Positions 9,597 through 22,365 of a stretch of 64,000 bases of DNA are shown piece by piece (within the stretch, counting starts at the first letter, position 1; each line of letters opens with the position of its first letter). The notes beneath the pieces are model-generated. The model saw only the letters and a program-made list of their open reading frames with translations. It made no database searches and was not told the origin of the DNA. This DNA comes from Candidatus Peribacteria bacterium. Its GTDB lineage: Bacteria > Patescibacteriota > Gracilibacteria > Peribacterales > Peribacteraceae. The position numbers and the translations under genes are program-made. Location: contig JBEPVF010000007.1 in the NCBI GenBank assembly GCA_041691135.1, positions 13,377 to 77,376 on the forward strand, read 5' to 3'.

Positions 9597-9780
9597 ACCC
9601 CATCCGCGCTGCGGGGCACCTTCCCCGGCCCTCCCATACGCCAACACGGGGAAGGGCGAGAGAACAAAACAGAAACATTCCCTTCCCCGTGAAAGCCTCT
9701 GAAGATGTGTCATTTAGAAAAAAAGTCTGATTTTCTCAGAACAAGAATGGAGGAGGCGGGGGAAGGGCTAGGGATGGGGT
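9597..9780. mobile_element. 184-bp MITE/REPIN-like element, family 2, copy 1
   Basis: Ends ACCCCATC...GATGGGGT; reverse complement of 20622-20805 with two differences by my alignment. Confidence 0.85.
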
Positions 9781-10440: not shown

Positions 10441-12315
10441 ATGGATCGTAAGCGAATACCCTCTGGCAAGCCGTTTGAATCCTCTTTGGAGGGACATCTG
10501 CACCAGGTGCAGCAGCATCTCGATCCTCATCAGAGTGTGAAACAGAAAATTCATAGCCGTATTCAACAACGTATTCAGGAGCCGGCTGTTTTTGAGGATG
10601 TCCGCCGCGTTCTCTCGCCGAACGCAGCAACGAAGCTGCGTGTATGGCAGCGCGCGTGGGGTCGCATTGCGCCACTGGGCGATCTGAGTCTGTGGGATCG
10701 ATTGCGGGCACTTCTTTCACCACAGCATTCGGTGCAGGAAGCCTTGCGCGGTCGCGTCATGAATCGCCTGCAGCCGACGCCCGTCTACGTGTATTCGTCG
10801 CATCCCATCAAATGGGTGGCGGCTTTCGTTCTCGTGGCGTTGGTCACCACGACGGTTGCACCGTTCCTCGTTGCACCCCGTACGATTGCCGACTCACAAG
10901 TGCTCGTGCAGGGGCAGGTGTTCCTGCTCATGGATGGTAATCTCTGGCAACCGATGCAGACCGAATTCCCGCTGACCAAGAGCGCGTTCCTGCAAACAGG
11001 CAAGAATTCCGCCAAGATCATTCTGTACGACGATGCGGTGTTTCGTATGGCGCCCAATACGACAATCGCATTGCATGATTTAACAGACCGTCCGGCAATA
11101 CCGACCTATCCGACAACTCTCACCGTCTATAAGGGCAAAGTTTGGGCGCAGGGTTTTGTGGCAGATGGCGAAAGTCCGCTGACAATCGCGGTAGGTGATG
11201 AGACGGTTACGCTCAACGAAGGCAGCGTCTCCATCGACGAAACCGGTCGTGTGCAGGTGTGGAACCGTCGTGCGACGATTGCGCAGGCTGATCAGCAGTT
11301 GAACCTGCTCGCCGGAGAAGAAACGCATGCCGTGAAGAACAGTCCGCTCATCGCCCAGAAGATACCGTCGAACGATTACGACACGCCGTGGGTTACCAAG
11401 AACCTGGCATTCGATGCGGTGCACCAGCGCGAGATCGCGCAAATCCAGCAGGAGCGTCTGGCCGCGGCGGCGGGAATCCTACCCACCAGTCCTTTTTACG
11501 TCGTCAAACGTGCAGCCGAAGCAGTGGATCGCGCGTTTACCTTCACGCCGGAGCAGAAAACCAAGAAGATCCTGGCGCAGGCCAATACGCGATTGAAGGA
11601 AGCGGCGGCTTTGATCGTGGATGGAAGTTCGGATGTCTCCGCACCGCTTGCCGAGTACCGTGCAGCCGTGTTATCGGTAGCCAGCGGATCAACCGTAACG
11701 CAGTCGCTGGTTCAGGAAGACATCACCAATACGACGGCAGACTTATCGGCCGCACTGCCCAATGATGCCGGTTACCAGCTTAAAGAAACGGTGCTCGGGA
11801 CAGCGGCCGCACTGCCGAACAGTTCGATCAATGTTCAAGATGTGCTGCTCGCCGACAAACTGATGGCCGTGAAGCAGACGGTGGAGGAAGGCAAAGATGT
11901 GCAGCCGAATGTACTCAGCGATCTGGCACCGAATCTCGGCAACCAGGACAGTGCTTCACCTGAGCTGCAGGAAGCTGCAGCCTCGCTCTCGGTAGCGCAG
12001 AACGCCTTCGAGAATGTCGATGGCTTGGCCGGCACCGGTGCATCGAAAGACATGAAGAGCGTACGTCCATCGCATGCTCCCACGAGTCCAATCGCCGCCG
12101 ATATTCCTGCGGCAGTGGGCATGTTACTTGGAAGGATGAATACGTATCACTTGTCCGCTTCCATTACGGCGCAGGCTGTCACAGAAGTACGTAACCTCCA
12201 GGGAAATCCTGATCGCGATGCCATTATCCGCGAGGCGATCCGCCAGCTGGATGCACCGTACAATACGGCTTTGGCACATGCGTTGCAGAAAGCGAAGGGG
12301 AAGGGGCAGTGGTAA
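10441..12315 (+). CDS. membrane-anchored FecR-like + DUF5667-like protein, putative anti-sigma factor
   Basis: One TM helix, then a beta-rich FecR-like region (LQTGKNSAKIILYDDAVFRMAPNT) and AGILPTSPFYVVKRAAE (DUF5667-like); directly downstream of the ECF sigma gene. Confidence 0.72.
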   Translation: MDRKRIPSGKPFESSLEGHLHQVQQHLDPHQSVKQKIHSRIQQRIQEPAVFEDVRRVLSPNAATKLRVWQRAWGRIAPLGDLSLWDRLRALLSPQHSVQEALRGRVMNRLQPTPVYVYSSHPIKWVAAFVLVALVTTTVAPFLVAPRTIADSQVLVQGQVFLLMDGNLWQPMQTEFPLTKSAFLQTGKNSAKIILYDDAVFRMAPNTTIALHDLTDRPAIPTYPTTLTVYKGKVWAQGFVADGESPLTIAVGDETVTLNEGSVSIDETGRVQVWNRRATIAQADQQLNLLAGEETHAVKNSPLIAQKIPSNDYDTPWVTKNLAFDAVHQREIAQIQQERLAAAAGILPTSPFYVVKRAAEAVDRAFTFTPEQKTKKILAQANTRLKEAAALIVDGSSDVSAPLAEYRAAVLSVASGSTVTQSLVQEDITNTTADLSAALPNDAGYQLKETVLGTAAALPNSSINVQDVLLADKLMAVKQTVEEGKDVQPNVLSDLAPNLGNQDSASPELQEAAASLSVAQNAFENVDGLAGTGASKDMKSVRPSHAPTSPIAADIPAAVGMLLGRMNTYHLSASITAQAVTEVRNLQGNPDRDAIIREAIRQLDAPYNTALAHALQKAKGKGQW

Positions 12316-18040: not shown

Positions 18041-18505
18041 ATGTCTACACCTCGTCCACTTCTCTTGATTCTGACGCTTTCGGCTCTGCTTGTCGCGTGC
18101 GGTAAGTCGCTCCCGCAGGCAACCAGTACTCCTCCGTATCCGGTCGATAATTTCGGGGCAACCAGCGGAACGGGTGCAATGGCGAGGTCGCTCTTGCCGG
18201 GAGAAACCGGTTACATTGATTTCCAAGATGGAGCGGTTGGAAATGGCGAGAAGTCACTCCTGTTTTTCTACGCCAAGTGGGATCCGTTCTCGAATGCCAA
18301 CGATGCGACCCTGCAAGCGTTGTATCAGCAACAACCTCTTCCCATTCGCATCTATAAGGTCGATTACGATACGCAGACTGATCTGAAGAATCGTTACGGC
18401 ATCACCCAGTCGAATACGTTTGTGTTGATTAATGCCAACGGCGATCCGCTCAAGATCATCAGTTATCCCAGCCAGGAGGATCTGAAGGTGCTGATTCAGG
18501 GATAA
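18041..18505 (+). CDS. thioredoxin-fold lipoprotein lacking CxxC
   Basis: Lipobox LVAC; LLFFYAKWDPFS at the WCxxC position; YKVDYD and YGITQSNTFVLI motifs. Confidence 0.8.
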   Translation: MSTPRPLLLILTLSALLVACGKSLPQATSTPPYPVDNFGATSGTGAMARSLLPGETGYIDFQDGAVGNGEKSLLFFYAKWDPFSNANDATLQALYQQQPLPIRIYKVDYDTQTDLKNRYGITQSNTFVLINANGDPLKIISYPSQEDLKVLIQG

Positions 18506-18595
18506 AACGTGTAATGACCAAATTCCAAGCCTCAATCAGCATGTTATTGGTAATTGAATTTTGGTGATTGGGATTTTAGCATCCGTTTTTATCTA

Positions 18596-18624
18596 TTGAC
18601 TAGAGATCCGTGCTAAGTTAATGT
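18596..18624 (+). promoter_or_regulatory. sigma-70-type promoter of the tandem-domain operon
   Basis: TTGACT-17 nt-TAATGT in an AT-rich stretch. Confidence 0.55.
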
Positions 18625-18838
18625 AATTATGTAACGGTACAAAGGTACAAATGACTATCCTCCTTTCACCCGTCGGCTTTTGGCGGCAGGGAACTCCCAA
18701 GCGGGGCTCTCTGAGGATCGTCTGATAGACAATTCAGGTCAGTAGGGAGCTCTGCTTCTTGTCGAAGCGGGGCATTTGGGTGGTTCCACAGGGAATTCGC
18801 TCGGCTGCTGATCTGTGAAAACATCGGAGGACGTAGAC

Positions 18839-19477
18839 GTGACTAACCAATTCTTGATTTTGACAGGCTTCTCGCCGTACAAGTTCCATCCTGTTACCGG
18901 TTGCGAGCTTGACGCTCTTGTCCTACTGGACCCCATCTATGGCGTGTTCGGTCAACCTGGAGACCCTCTGGATCCGATCATCTTTTTTGATGAAAAGGAC
19001 GAACCGGATATCAGGCACTGGAAGTTCGATCCTCGCACGCGACACCCGTGGAAGCATCCGGAACTCCGCTCGGATTGGCCCAAGTTTCCCAGTTGCTACA
19101 GTGCGGAGCAGTTGGATCGCGGCCAGGCGATGATCATTCATCCAATCACGGCAGTACTGTTGAATCTGTTGCCTCGGTGTTACAGGTGTATCAATGACTA
19201 CTCTGATCAGGAGATGAGAGTCGCGGAGCAGTTTCCCAACTTCCATGCACCAAGTTCTTTTCCTTGGGACCTCGACTACTGCGAAGAATCCATGCAGTTC
19301 GTCGAACACGAACATGGAGGGGGCAGGCAAAGAAAGCGTTACCACGGGCGCATTGGAACGGGATTCAATATGTACGAGCTGGTCAGTTCGTACCCGTACC
19401 ACTGGCTTTACGATCCGTTCACAGGCAGATACCTTCAAGAAGAGGAGGTCGAAGGTGACAAGCATCAAGCTGGTTGA
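18839..19477 (+). CDS. HPxTG/HWKFDP-domain protein 1 (two domain copies)
   Basis: GGAGGA SD before GTG 18839; FHPVTG...HWKFDPRT, then HPITA...YPYHWLYDPFTG. Confidence 0.8.
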   Translation: MTNQFLILTGFSPYKFHPVTGCELDALVLLDPIYGVFGQPGDPLDPIIFFDEKDEPDIRHWKFDPRTRHPWKHPELRSDWPKFPSCYSAEQLDRGQAMIIHPITAVLLNLLPRCYRCINDYSDQEMRVAEQFPNFHAPSSFPWDLDYCEESMQFVEHEHGGGRQRKRYHGRIGTGFNMYELVSSYPYHWLYDPFTGRYLQEEEVEGDKHQAG

Positions 19478-19823
19478 ACACGGTATCTTCCCGCGAGCAT
19501 ATCGCTCGTTCCAGCTCGACTGGGGCTTGGATATGCTCCGGCATCCGGTGACGGGTGATGTGCTGTCTCGTCAGATGCCGTACGATCACGATAAGCATGT
19601 TTGCTACATCCGTATCCTCCATACTCGTGGGGGATGGAAAGCGCCGACCGTCTCTTACCGATTCCTCCCACGAATCGGCTTGGGTCAGGACGTCTCTAAA
19701 GGCGATCTCTTCCCGGCACACTGGAAGTTCGATCCCTACGAGCAGGAAAGTACGGTGGCGGCAGTGTCGACAGTTATTGTGACCACGACTGCTGTGCCGA
19801 TGGGTGGTTGGGCGATGGACTGA
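19455..19823 (+). CDS. HPxTG/HWKFDP-domain protein 2
   Basis: GAGGAGG SD before GTG 19455; RHPVTG...FPAHWKFDPY. Confidence 0.8.
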   Translation: MTSIKLVEHGIFPRAYRSFQLDWGLDMLRHPVTGDVLSRQMPYDHDKHVCYIRILHTRGGWKAPTVSYRFLPRIGLGQDVSKGDLFPAHWKFDPYEQESTVAAVSTVIVTTTAVPMGGWAMD

Positions 19824-19839
19824 GAAAGGAGAATCCGCA

Positions 19840-20139
19840 ATGCAACGAGTCTTCACAGACTGGTATAGGCCTCGTCAGATGATCCAGGGAATCGGGCTTA
19901 CTTTCCATCCCATCGTGGGCTTGGAACTTAAGGACCTGGTCTATCATGCCATGGACGGTCGTTTGTCTCTTCGGAATCCAGGGAACTGGCTCATGAAGCA
20001 GGGCCTCTCTCCCTCAGCGTGCGAAGTCATCGAGGAAATCTACTTTCCATGCATCACCGACGGAAGGGATGACTACACTGTGGGCAGCCCATACCCGCAG
20101 CACTGGAAGTTCGATCCCTTCACAGGTGAACCTTTGTGA
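19840..20139 (+). CDS. HPxTG/HWKFDP-domain protein 3
   Basis: AAGGAG SD before ATG 19840; FHPIVG...YPQHWKFDPFTGEPL. Confidence 0.8.
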   Translation: MQRVFTDWYRPRQMIQGIGLTFHPIVGLELKDLVYHAMDGRLSLRNPGNWLMKQGLSPSACEVIEEIYFPCITDGRDDYTVGSPYPQHWKFDPFTGEPL

Positions 20140-20147
20140 GGAGAACA

Positions 20148-20459
20148 ATGCACAGACGACGTTTTCGTGTCCCCTATCGTGCTGCCGAGCTCAATGCCGG
20201 CGTCACCATGGCGTACCACCCGGTGACCGGGCGCAAGCTCCGGTCACTCAGCTACTGCGATCGATGCTGTTGTTACTACTTCATCGAGCGTGAGTATGAG
20301 CCCGGCCTTTCGATTTTCGGTCTTGATGCGACGGTTACCGAAACGAAAGTATATCTGCCGATGATTAGTGTCGGCCAAGGCGTCGATGCCGATGAGCTCT
20401 ACCCGGCTCACTGGAAGTTTGATCCGTTCCTCGGAGCATTGATCAATGACTCCGTGTGA
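20148..20459 (+). CDS. HPxTG/HWKFDP-domain protein 4
   Basis: GAGGAG SD before ATG 20148; YHPVTG...YPAHWKFDPFLG. Confidence 0.8.
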   Translation: MHRRRFRVPYRAAELNAGVTMAYHPVTGRKLRSLSYCDRCCCYYFIEREYEPGLSIFGLDATVTETKVYLPMISVGQGVDADELYPAHWKFDPFLGALINDSV

Positions 20460-20485
20460 ATCCTCCGATAACCCTTCAGTAGCCT

Positions 20486-20523
20486 ACCCCTCCCATTGTC
20501 CATTCGGACCGGGAGGGGTTTTT
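20486..20523 (+). terminator. intrinsic terminator
   Basis: ACCCCTCCC...GTCC-ATTC-GGAC...GGGAGGGGT followed by a T-run. Confidence 0.8.
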
Positions 20524-20621
20524 ATTGTGCATGCATACAGTAATTCTGTTTTAGCATTTGGGGCGCTGCTGCTTTCTGCGCGGTGGGTAGCCAGAAGCAT
20601 ATTCAGCATGAGTTTTGCCGT

Positions 20622-20805
20622 ACCCCATCCCTAGCCCTTCCCCCGCCTCCTCCATTCTTGTTCTGAGAAAATCAGACTTTTTTTCTAAATGACACATCTT
20701 CAGAGGCTTTCACGGGGAAGGGAATGTTTCTGTTTTGTTCTCTCGCCCTTCCCCGTGTTGGCGTATGGGAGGGCCGGGGAAGGTGCCCCGCAGGGCAGAT
20801 GGGGT
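20622..20805. mobile_element. 184-bp MITE/REPIN-like element, family 2, copy 2 (inverted)
   Basis: Near-exact reverse complement of 9597-9780. Confidence 0.85.
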
Positions 20806-20905
20806 ACACAAGCTGACGATGAATCGGATACCCAGGAACTCACCGCACAGAAAGCGACAGCGCCAATCTGAAAATTCAGAAGAGCACACGGCTATCAATC
20901 ATGAT

Positions 20906-20930
20906 AAAAAAGGACGGCGTTTACCGTCCT
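20906..20930 (-). terminator. glnA intrinsic terminator
   Basis: Minus strand AGGACGG-TAAACG-CCGTCCT followed by TTTTT. Confidence 0.75.
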
Positions 20931-20952
20931 GATTCACTACAGTGGTTTTGCC

Positions 20953-22365
20953 TTATACGTCGTAGTAGCGGAAGAATTCACTCGGGCTCGGACGCTTGCG
21001 CTCATCGGCCACTTCATCGCGTTTCACGTCGATGAAGTCGCGCAGATAGTCTTCGGTAAACACACCTGACGACAGCAGGAACTCATGATCCTTGTCGAGC
21101 GCATCCAGGGCTTTATCGAGCGTCTCTGGTGCATGTGGAATTTTGGTGAGCTTCTTCGGATCCATGTGATACAGATTCTCATCAGTGGGAGCGCCCGGGT
21201 CGATCTTGTTCTTGATGCCGTCCAGACCGGCTAACAGCATGGCCGAGAAGGCGACATATGGGTTGCAGGCGGGGTCTGGCGAGCGGAACTCTACGCGCTT
21301 GGCTTTGGGGCTTTGCGAATACATCGGGATGCGGAAAGCAGCACTGCGATTGCGGGCCGAGTAGATGAAGTTCACCGGCGCTTCGAATCCGGGCACCAGA
21401 CGCTTGTAGCTGTTGGTGGTGGGGTTACAGATGGCGCACAGCGCCTGAGCGTGTTTGAGGATGCCGCCCATGTAATGCAAAGCCATCTTGGACAGACCGG
21501 CGTACTCATTGCCGGCGAAGAGGGGTTTGCCTGCCTTCCATAGACTCATATGCGTATGCATACCGGAGCCGTTGTCGCCGTAGATCGGCTTGGGCATAAA
21601 GGTGACGGTCTTGCCATAGCGCTGGGCCACGTTGCGGACGATGTACTTGTAGCGCGTCAGCTTGTCGGCCATGCGGAACATCTCGTCGTACTTCATATCA
21701 ATCTCGGCCTGACCGCCGGTAGCGACTTCGTGGTGGAACGTCTCGATCTCGATGCCGGCCTTTTCCAATTCCATCACCATGGCGGCTCGTACATCTTGAT
21801 GCTTGTCGGCGGGCGAAGCAGGGAAGTAGCCTTCTTTGTGACGGATCTTGTAGCCCAAGTTTCCACCCTCGCAATCGTCCTCGCCGCAGTTCCATGTCGC
21901 TTCCTCGCTGTCCACGCGGTAGTGCGCATCCCCAATACCGGCGTTGTAGCTCACATGGTCGAAAATGAAGAACTCGGCTTCGGGCCCGTAGTACGCCTTA
22001 TCGGCCAAACCGGTTTTCTTCAGGTAGTCTATGGCCTTGCGGGCGATGGAGCGCGGGCTGCGGGCGTAGAGTTTATTGGTGATCGGTTCGTGTACGTCGC
22101 ACAGGAGCGAGAGCGTCGGTTCTTCGGTGAACGGATCGATCATGGCGGTGGCTAAGTCAGGGATCAGGAGCATGTCCGATTCCTGGATCTGCTGGAAGCC
22201 CCGGATACTGGAACCGTCGAATCCGGCGCCGCCGTCCAGCACATCTTCGAGCTGGTGGATGGGTTTGCTCGTGTGATGGAGCGTGCCGGGTACATCGACA
22301 AAAGTGAGATCCAGGACGGTGCACTTATTCTTCTTGGCGAAGGCGATGAGGTCTTTGCTGTTCAT
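20953..22365 (-). CDS. glnA: type I glutamine synthetase
   Basis: [56 protein letters not shown] and EFRSPD motifs; NLY adenylylation-site motif. Confidence 0.97.

Follow-up and report, generated by a model that had tools for sequence, protein, structure and literature searches.

What are four short genes that stand in tandem, each encoding one or two copies of a ~95-amino-acid (aa) domain, and what do they do for a bacterium with a tiny genome? We analyzed a 64,000-nucleotide (nt) stretch of DNA (the window) from a Candidatus Peribacteria bacterium, a member of the Candidate Phyla Radiation (CPR)/Patescibacteria, in which such an array occupies positions 18839–20459 of the + strand. The domain belongs to a real, conserved, and tiny protein family that is restricted to a single Peribacteria family. 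The protein family is previously undescribed, in that literature searches and libraries of named families returned nothing, and no new mechanism is demonstrated here. The reading we favor, tentatively and at a probability of roughly 45%, is that the domain is a cysteine-free descendant or analogue of the zinc-ribbon double knuckle, acting as a binding module in a regulatory or RNA-metabolism cassette.

The array consists of four adjacent genes, g1 to g4 (Table 1), each preceded by a GGAGG-type Shine–Dalgarno site 4–8 nt upstream, with a 23-nt overlap between the reading frames of g1 and g2. Two motifs, HP[VI]TG..L and HWKFDP[FY]TG..L, are both visible in an alignment of the five units of the array (A1). 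To avoid circularity, the window's proteins were excluded from an independent hidden Markov model (HMM), which was built from 134 homologous domains of other organisms and run over the 952 six-frame open reading frames (ORFs) of at least 40 aa in the window. This model scored g2 at 84.0 bits (E = 3.5e-25), g4 at 80.3 bits, g3 at 76.1 bits, and g1, taken as a whole protein, at 71.7 bits; none of the remaining ORFs among the 952 matched. The first unit of g1 was matched by weak motif fragments alone, one per motif, at 6.0 and 8.6 bits, and is therefore a degenerate copy. The array contains five domain copies, four intact and one degenerate, in agreement with the original prediction, which had described four adjacent genes with strong Shine–Dalgarno sites and five copies, the first of g1 being deficient.

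A HMMER search with a 40-row alignment (A2) against 1.84 billion protein representatives returned 137 matches at E ≤ 1e-3 and 122 at E ≤ 1e-10. The family emerged with a profile only: a word-indexed search of 5.8 billion proteins with g3 returned g3 itself alone, and a single-protein search of 40 relatives gave marginal matches. We excluded from the family statistics P0100 and P0136, which are beta-propeller repeat proteins with many short partial profile matches judged to be spurious; P0135, a low-complexity repeat protein whose repeated partial matches were likewise judged to be spurious; and P0133, in which the C-terminal motif is present and the remaining domain absent. The 136 retained proteins comprise 126 with one domain and 10 two-domain fusions. 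The domain has a median length of 93 aa and a median isoelectric point of ~6, as of a soluble, mildly acidic protein; a transmembrane-like stretch occurs in 2 of the 136, and signal or transmembrane segments were not seen as a rule. When ten family proteins were looked up, one was called 'hypothetical protein' and the rest had no name.

The distribution of the family is narrow and patchy. A profile of the five units matched 32 of 200 genomes of the same GTDB family at E ≤ 0.1, and the accepted cut-off of E ≤ 1e-3 leaves 25, the source genome included. The other seven matches (E 0.004–0.07) are weak, four of them sitting in ORFs of ~850 aa, and were not counted. Among the 24 other accepted genomes, 15 carry one copy, five carry two, and four carry three; the four genes and five units of the source genome form the largest array seen. 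No member was found in any of four genomes of the same genus (4/4). In an even sample of 401 genomes across the phylum, matches came from the source genome and two of 11 genomes of its family, and from none of the 389 in other families. All nine of the loci that a 12-row sub-alignment found in named genome records belong to Candidatus Peribacteria or Peregrinibacteria.

The original prediction knew of no named family with this signature, and none surfaced in Pfam, NCBIfam, PADLOC, PHROGs, or the sequences of the PDB. Specifically, Pfam and NCBIfam gave no credible match for g1–g4, and Pfam gave none for 40 family members, of which PADLOC matched 0 of 40. PHROGs returned no credible match, with two single-member matches at E 0.04–0.09, and a profile search of PDB sequences found nothing (best E 0.53). 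IMG/VR yielded no relative, and tblastn against phage records yielded no match, plasmids being outside the search. No description of the family turned up in the literature, where the motif itself is not queryable and supplementary files are not covered.

Conservation, calculated over 139 domains and given in family numbering, is strongest at the ends of the domain. The N-terminal end carries G19 (94%), M22 (85%), H25 (97%), P26 (100%), and G29 (84%), followed by I66 (96%) and G75 (80%). The C-terminal end carries H81 (89%), W82 (100%), D85 (75%), P86 (95%), T88 (80%), G89 (90%), and L92 (83%). Three acidic residues, D17, D68, and D76, are also conserved. The middle varies, with low information in HMM columns 38–62 and inserts of up to 25 residues, in keeping with the variable middles described earlier. 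Column 85 is occupied by D (75%), H (7%), N (7%), or C (6%), a residue pattern compatible with a metal ligand.

An alignment of the N-terminal third of the family with its C-terminal third by hhalign reached a probability of 81% (E = 1.2e-5) over 14 columns and paired 'gM.fHPvtG..l' with 'HW.fDP.TG..L'. The domain thus carries a single element, F-[H/D]-P-x-T-G-x-x-L, twice, once near each end, and the two copies flank a variable excursion. Among the 139 domains, cysteine is sporadic at the ligand-equivalent columns, with 11 instances at column 28 and nine at column 85; it recurs in subsets of the family at columns 27, 28, 43, 45, and 85, and 19 domains lack it altogether. A mean-field analysis of covariation between the motifs gave a signal dominated by gap artefacts.

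We built AlphaFold2 models of g3 and g4, which are ~31% identical, using the 40-row alignment. The g3 model has a predicted local distance difference test score (pLDDT) of 92.1 and a predicted template-modelling score (pTM) of 0.80; the g4 model has a pLDDT of 93.0 and a pTM of 0.80. Both share a sparse pattern consisting of a short helix after residue 11 and single beta-bridges around each motif, assigned by DSSP at residues 22/29 and 91/98 in g3 and at 23/30 and 91/98 in g4, with bridge partners not reported. Other bridges fall in both models at residues 4–5, 9–10, 79, and 84. The predicted bridges at the motifs would fit a hairpin turn. In the g3 model the variable middle is helical; in the g4 model it forms a long beta-hairpin. 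A Foldseek search with the models found no structural neighbour in the PDB (best E 3.5) or BFVD (best E 1.1). The predicted compact structure resembles no solved structure, and the missing match is not proof of a new fold. Of the checks that had been proposed at the outset, the profile search recovered a true small family and the structure search left the g3 and g4 models without a neighbour.

The original prediction had compared the two motifs to zinc-ribbon knuckles in which cysteine is replaced. The consensus of such knuckles, CPxCG, sits in hairpin turns according to one published account (PMC5906684). The spacing of [H/D]-P-x-T-G in the family equals that of CPxCG, and both systems combine two elements of the form X-P-x-X-G then ..L, a variable region between them, and a small domain; for the family, a position of the elements in hairpin turns is a possibility raised by the models. 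They differ in that the ligand-equivalent positions of the family are H25/T28 and D85/T88 in place of cysteine, and in that its knuckles are ~60 residues apart versus 15–30. Two Cys (or His) ligands per CPxCG knuckle, the criterion for a zinc ribbon, are not found over the 139 domains. Ligand-less zinc ribbons have been described, among them the passage from Cren7 to Sul7 and the C-terminal zinc ribbon of nicotinate phosphoribosyltransferase (both as given in PMC5906684), and alpha-COP is put forward in another source (PMC4678705) as a precedent for a zinc ribbon or RING-like finger that loses its ligands. The knuckle analogy is plausible and supported in part; no match to a zinc-ribbon Pfam model or structure appeared.

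One atypical member, P0138, contains five cysteines. A search of the ESM Atlas with this protein placed several zinc-ribbon clusters among its nearest rows, with feature scores of 0.83–0.85 that have the standing of a lead only. The nearest clusters are Trm112-like and small zinc-ribbon proteins (BsaP, HVO_2753, and Zn_ribbon_6), and the structural rows list BsaP, Trm112, and a recombinase zinc ribbon at template-modelling scores of 0.29–0.41. However, all P0138 scores lie under the tool's bar for kinship, and the Atlas model of P0138 is poor (pLDDT 0.45).

Two further comparisons concern the hairpin element by itself. The excluded protein P0133, a membrane protein of 673 aa, repeats WKFDPxTGxPL about six times, as a free-standing motif, in the N-terminal part that precedes a transmembrane helix; it lacks the N-terminal motif and the PRIGDG segment of the family, has no Pfam match, and is unrelated. 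These repeats show that the hairpin element also occurs by itself, away from the rest of the domain. RHS/YD repeats have the hairpin consensus xYxYDxxGRL, which bears a superficial resemblance to F-D-P-x-T-G-x-x-L. They differ from the family, whose domain has two elements and whose protein is small and cytoplasmic, and no RHS or YD Pfam model matched among 40 members at E ≤ 5.

The usual address of the family is a core operon. We examined 16-kb regions around family genes in 12 other genomes, using profile or phmmer searches to locate ribosomal protein S15 (rpsO), polynucleotide phosphorylase (PNPase; pnp), and the family. All 12 loci place the family gene or genes in the rpsO–pnp interval, usually with no other gene intervening before pnp; the strand is shared in 11 loci and inverted in L045. 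Five more loci from named records (L053, L055, L058, L059, and L061) agree as far as their contigs extend. These loci come from kin genomes and so do not count as independent cases. In 11 of the 12 loci, genome G109 being the exception, a TrpR/YerC-like gene (PF01371, E = 2.2e-22) stands between rpsO and the family gene; Bacillus subtilis YerC is described in PMC9413887 as HisR, a TrpR-family protein predicted to act as the histidine repressor. Variable small ORFs follow the YerC-like gene. In five genomes of the same bacterial family that lack the domain, the interval measures 0.6–1.5 kb and holds a YerC-like gene in one of five. The rpsO–pnp interval in this bacterial family is a variable slot.

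Several further details deserve mention. The small ORFs of the interval (loci L038–L049) encode ~120–140 aa, are of at least two types, and vary by lineage. In genome G200, a 638-aa fusion of chorismate-binding and glutamine-amidotransferase domains (PabAB/TrpEG-like; L043:8368–10281, − strand) is placed within the interval, with the TrpR-like gene on one side and the family gene on the other. In genome G010, a 119-aa ORF (L005:1474–1833, − strand) adjoins a YerC-like gene and ends in YPTHWIRCPFTGYEL, with Cys replacing Asp; judged by its weak profile match (E 0.006–0.03), it may be a divergent member of the family. In genome G066, ~220 nt with a stem-loop separate the family gene from pnp, and the two are not translationally coupled. 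This stem-loop (L038:7490–7545, − strand; AAAGCCCCATT...AATGGGGCTTT) could be a terminator, an attenuator, or a processing site of the pnp leader.

The source genome departs from this arrangement. Its rpsO–pnp interval lies on another contig (C8), without the family, and a 114-aa unrelated ORF stands between the two genes. We considered this ORF as a hidden member and rejected it, as it has neither the motif nor an HMM match; it is weakly related (E = 1.1e-4) to another small ORF of the same interval elsewhere. The two TrpR-like genes of the source genome are on contigs C1 and C5, away from the array. A congener, G001, has an ammonium transporter (PF00909, E = 7e-117; L069:1685–3106) in the slot flanked by glnA and the thioredoxin-like gene. 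The compared slot of the source genome (window 18506–20950) contains the array and a 188-base-pair (bp) dispersed repeat resembling a miniature inverted-repeat transposable element (MITE), and its amt gene is on contig C19:9321–10583. The array probably reached this site in one piece, by acquisition or by relocation.

The units themselves have diverged extensively. In local alignments the five are 25–47% identical pairwise, and at the DNA level they share stretches of only 17–46 nt; their best identity to any homolog is ~40%. Trees of 40 and of 139 domains are largely unresolved, and the five units do not cluster, apart from a weak grouping of g2 with g4 (84 in the Shimodaira–Hasegawa-like approximate likelihood ratio test). 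The low identity and the lack of clustering indicate that the array is old and not the product of a recent local amplification.

Under the reading we favor, the family would descend from, or converge on, a double knuckle of zinc-ribbon type in which cysteine is no longer used. The near-invariant His25, His81, and Asp85 would come together as a His/His/Asp metal site or else as a clasp held by hydrogen bonds. The resulting domain would be a small binding module for a protein or a small ligand, with the variable excursion tuning its specificity, and the domains may work in pairs, as suggested by the 10 two-domain fusions and the tandem genes. Its role would lie in the regulatory or RNA-metabolism module that normally contains its gene, and not in defence.

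A number of observations weigh against this proposal. The derivation from a zinc ribbon draws on the spacing, the internal repeat, and the lead-level neighbours of one Cys-rich member. Zinc-ribbon Pfam models gave no match among the 40 members, no solved zinc ribbon was like the models, and an ESM Atlas search with g3 returned nothing (best 0.77). Threonine is not a usual metal ligand. The models are loop-rich and irregular, which may have depressed the Foldseek scores. With regard to context, the rpsO–yerC–pnp synteny comes from kin that are not independent and is broken in the source genome, and the spacer and hairpin of G066 argue against tight coupling to pnp. Finally, no function is transferable to the family by homology. 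A more specific version of the proposal is doubtful: it holds that the domain is a new fold of two cysteine-free knuckles, clasped by a His/His/Asp metal site or by hydrogen bonds, that forms pairs as a modular binding domain, its partner specificity set by the variable excursion, and that the array encodes a hetero-oligomeric set, gained by transfer and integrated next to the MITE. The domain would then amount to a zinc ribbon freed from its need for cysteine.

Several alternatives to a cysteine-free double knuckle serving a regulatory or RNA-metabolism cassette were weighed. The family might assist PNPase, RNA decay, or S15 as an accessory factor, binding PNPase or its leader or target RNA and so modulating RNA turnover, which would account for a gene position immediately before pnp. 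The 12 of 12 loci between rpsO and pnp, 11 of them on the same strand and usually just before pnp, point this way, and the named-record loci concur within the reach of their contigs. Yet this role is unlikely. The source array lies on a different contig from rpsO–pnp and has its own terminator; ~220 nt and a stem-loop intervene before pnp in G066; the proteins are acidic and not basic; the family occurs in 25 of 200 related genomes, although rpsO–pnp is kept in all bacteria examined; and synteny among kin may be inherited and not functional. Less probable again is a partnership with the adjacent TrpR/YerC(HisR)-like regulator, for which the domain would be a ligand-sensing or anti-repressor subunit of an inserted cassette. 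A YerC-like gene accompanies 11 of 12 loci with the family versus one of five genomes without it, and the possible divergent member of G010, a weak match, adjoins such a gene as well, but the samples are small and not independent, the TrpR-like genes of the source genome are on other contigs, and the interval of G109 has no YerC. A true metalloprotein, using a His/His/Asp site with some assistance from Cys to hold zinc or iron for a redox, chaperone, or catalytic role, is about as unlikely as the PNPase factor. It would account for the near-invariant H25 and H81, for D, H, C, or N at column 85, for the Cys columns that recur in subsets, and for the conserved D17, D68, and D76; against it, no consistent four-ligand set emerges, Cys is missing entirely from 19 of 139 domains, and no metal-binding family was matched.

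The array had initially been read as consistent with a diversified recognition, immunity, or effector system, with a hypervariable insert displayed by a conserved clasp, and this interpretation is weakened by the comparison. Tandem genes, divergent paralogs, a middle that varies in sequence, length, and predicted secondary structure, and a patchy distribution are consistent with it, as are the derived site beside a MITE and the failure to find the family in the four congeners, which would suit mobile accessory cargo. Single-copy, uniformly conserved homologs had been named as a finding that would tell against it, and the homologs are indeed mostly single-copy (15 of 24 other genomes), although their middles vary. 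The usual site is a housekeeping operon, signal peptides and transmembrane segments are lacking, and the annotated flanks contain no toxin, nuclease, or reverse-transcriptase neighbour. PADLOC recognized 0 of 40 members, PHROGs gave two weak matches, and no relative was found in IMG/VR or phage records; the paralogs are moreover ancient and not recently diversified. Of the roles considered, defence is the least supported and quite improbable, given the single copies, the housekeeping context, and the absence of partner genes and of defence-model or viral matches. That the array represents spurious ORFs or decaying pseudogenes without function is scarcely credible. The degenerate first unit of g1 and the loss of TG from the second motif of g2 would fit decay, but all four ORFs have Shine–Dalgarno sites and tight spacing, match homologs in 24 other genomes strongly by profile, yield models of high AlphaFold confidence, and retain residues conserved over 139 domains.

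CPR bacteria encode many lineage-specific small proteins of unknown role, few of which have a confident structural prediction. The present family stands out by its strongly conserved pair of motifs and its fixed address in the core operon rpsO–pnp. If the double-knuckle reading is true, the domain would be a natural example of a metal-stabilised mini-domain rebuilt without cysteines, of interest to fold evolution and protein design. If a link to the YerC/HisR-like regulator or to PNPase is true, it would point to lineage-specific control of RNA turnover or of amino-acid regulation in uncultured organisms.

Table 1 Features of the array and its immediate surroundings (window coordinates)
Feature	Position	Strand	Description
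Intergenic leader	18506–18838	+	333 bp, directly 5' of the array; single occurrence in the genome
g1	18839–19477	+	212 aa, two-unit protein; GTG start; GGAGGA 7 nt upstream
g1 unit 1	18839–19090	+	Degenerate and shortened; retains just FHPVTG and HWKFDP
g1 unit 2	19091–19477	+	Full domain with long insert; 54.6 bits, E 5.5e-16
g2	19455–19823	+	122 aa, one domain; GTG start; AGGAGG 6 nt upstream
g3	19840–20139	+	99 aa, one domain; ATG start; AAGGAG 8 nt upstream
g4	20148–20459	+	103 aa, one domain; ATG start; GAGGAG 4 nt upstream
Terminator-like hairpin with U-run	20486–20527	+	3' of g4; free energy (dG) −27.7 kcal/mol, z −3.0
MITE-like dispersed repeat	20620–20807	+	188 bp; 10-bp terminal inverted repeats GTACCCCATC/GATGGGGTAC; directly 3' of the array

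The array had been credited with a promoter and a terminator of its own. The second part is supported by the terminator-like hairpin after g4, which none of 200 shuffled sequences matched in folding (0/200); with respect to the first, scanning the + strand upstream of the array for consensus sites gave no sigma-70-like promoter. Rfam gave no credible match across positions 18300–21000, the leader included, with one match at E 0.87. The base composition of the array is the same as that of its flanks. The flanking genes are housekeeping genes, as anticipated: efp, gatB, a sigma factor, def, a HhH-GPD glycosylase, and the adjoining thioredoxin-like protein upstream, and a convergent glnA downstream. 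Upstream of efp, positions 10441–12315 (+ strand) encode a protein of 624 aa that contains a DUF5667 domain (E = 2.4e-14).

Within the array, the second motif of g2 is partly degenerate and reads HWKFDPYEQ. The g2 protein also has a tail (window 19740–19823) that the other units do not share, mildly hydrophobic, rich in Thr, Val, and Ala, and ending in …STVAAVSTVIVTTTAVPMGGWAMD. The hydropathy is 1.37, under the threshold used.

The MITE-like repeat is present in the genome in at least seven near-full and ~20 partial copies, one of them on contig C8, 4.3 kb upstream of rpsO. A second copy in the window (9597–9780, − strand) is 99% identical and inverted, and the two window copies bracket ~11 kb that include efp, gatB, def, and the array.

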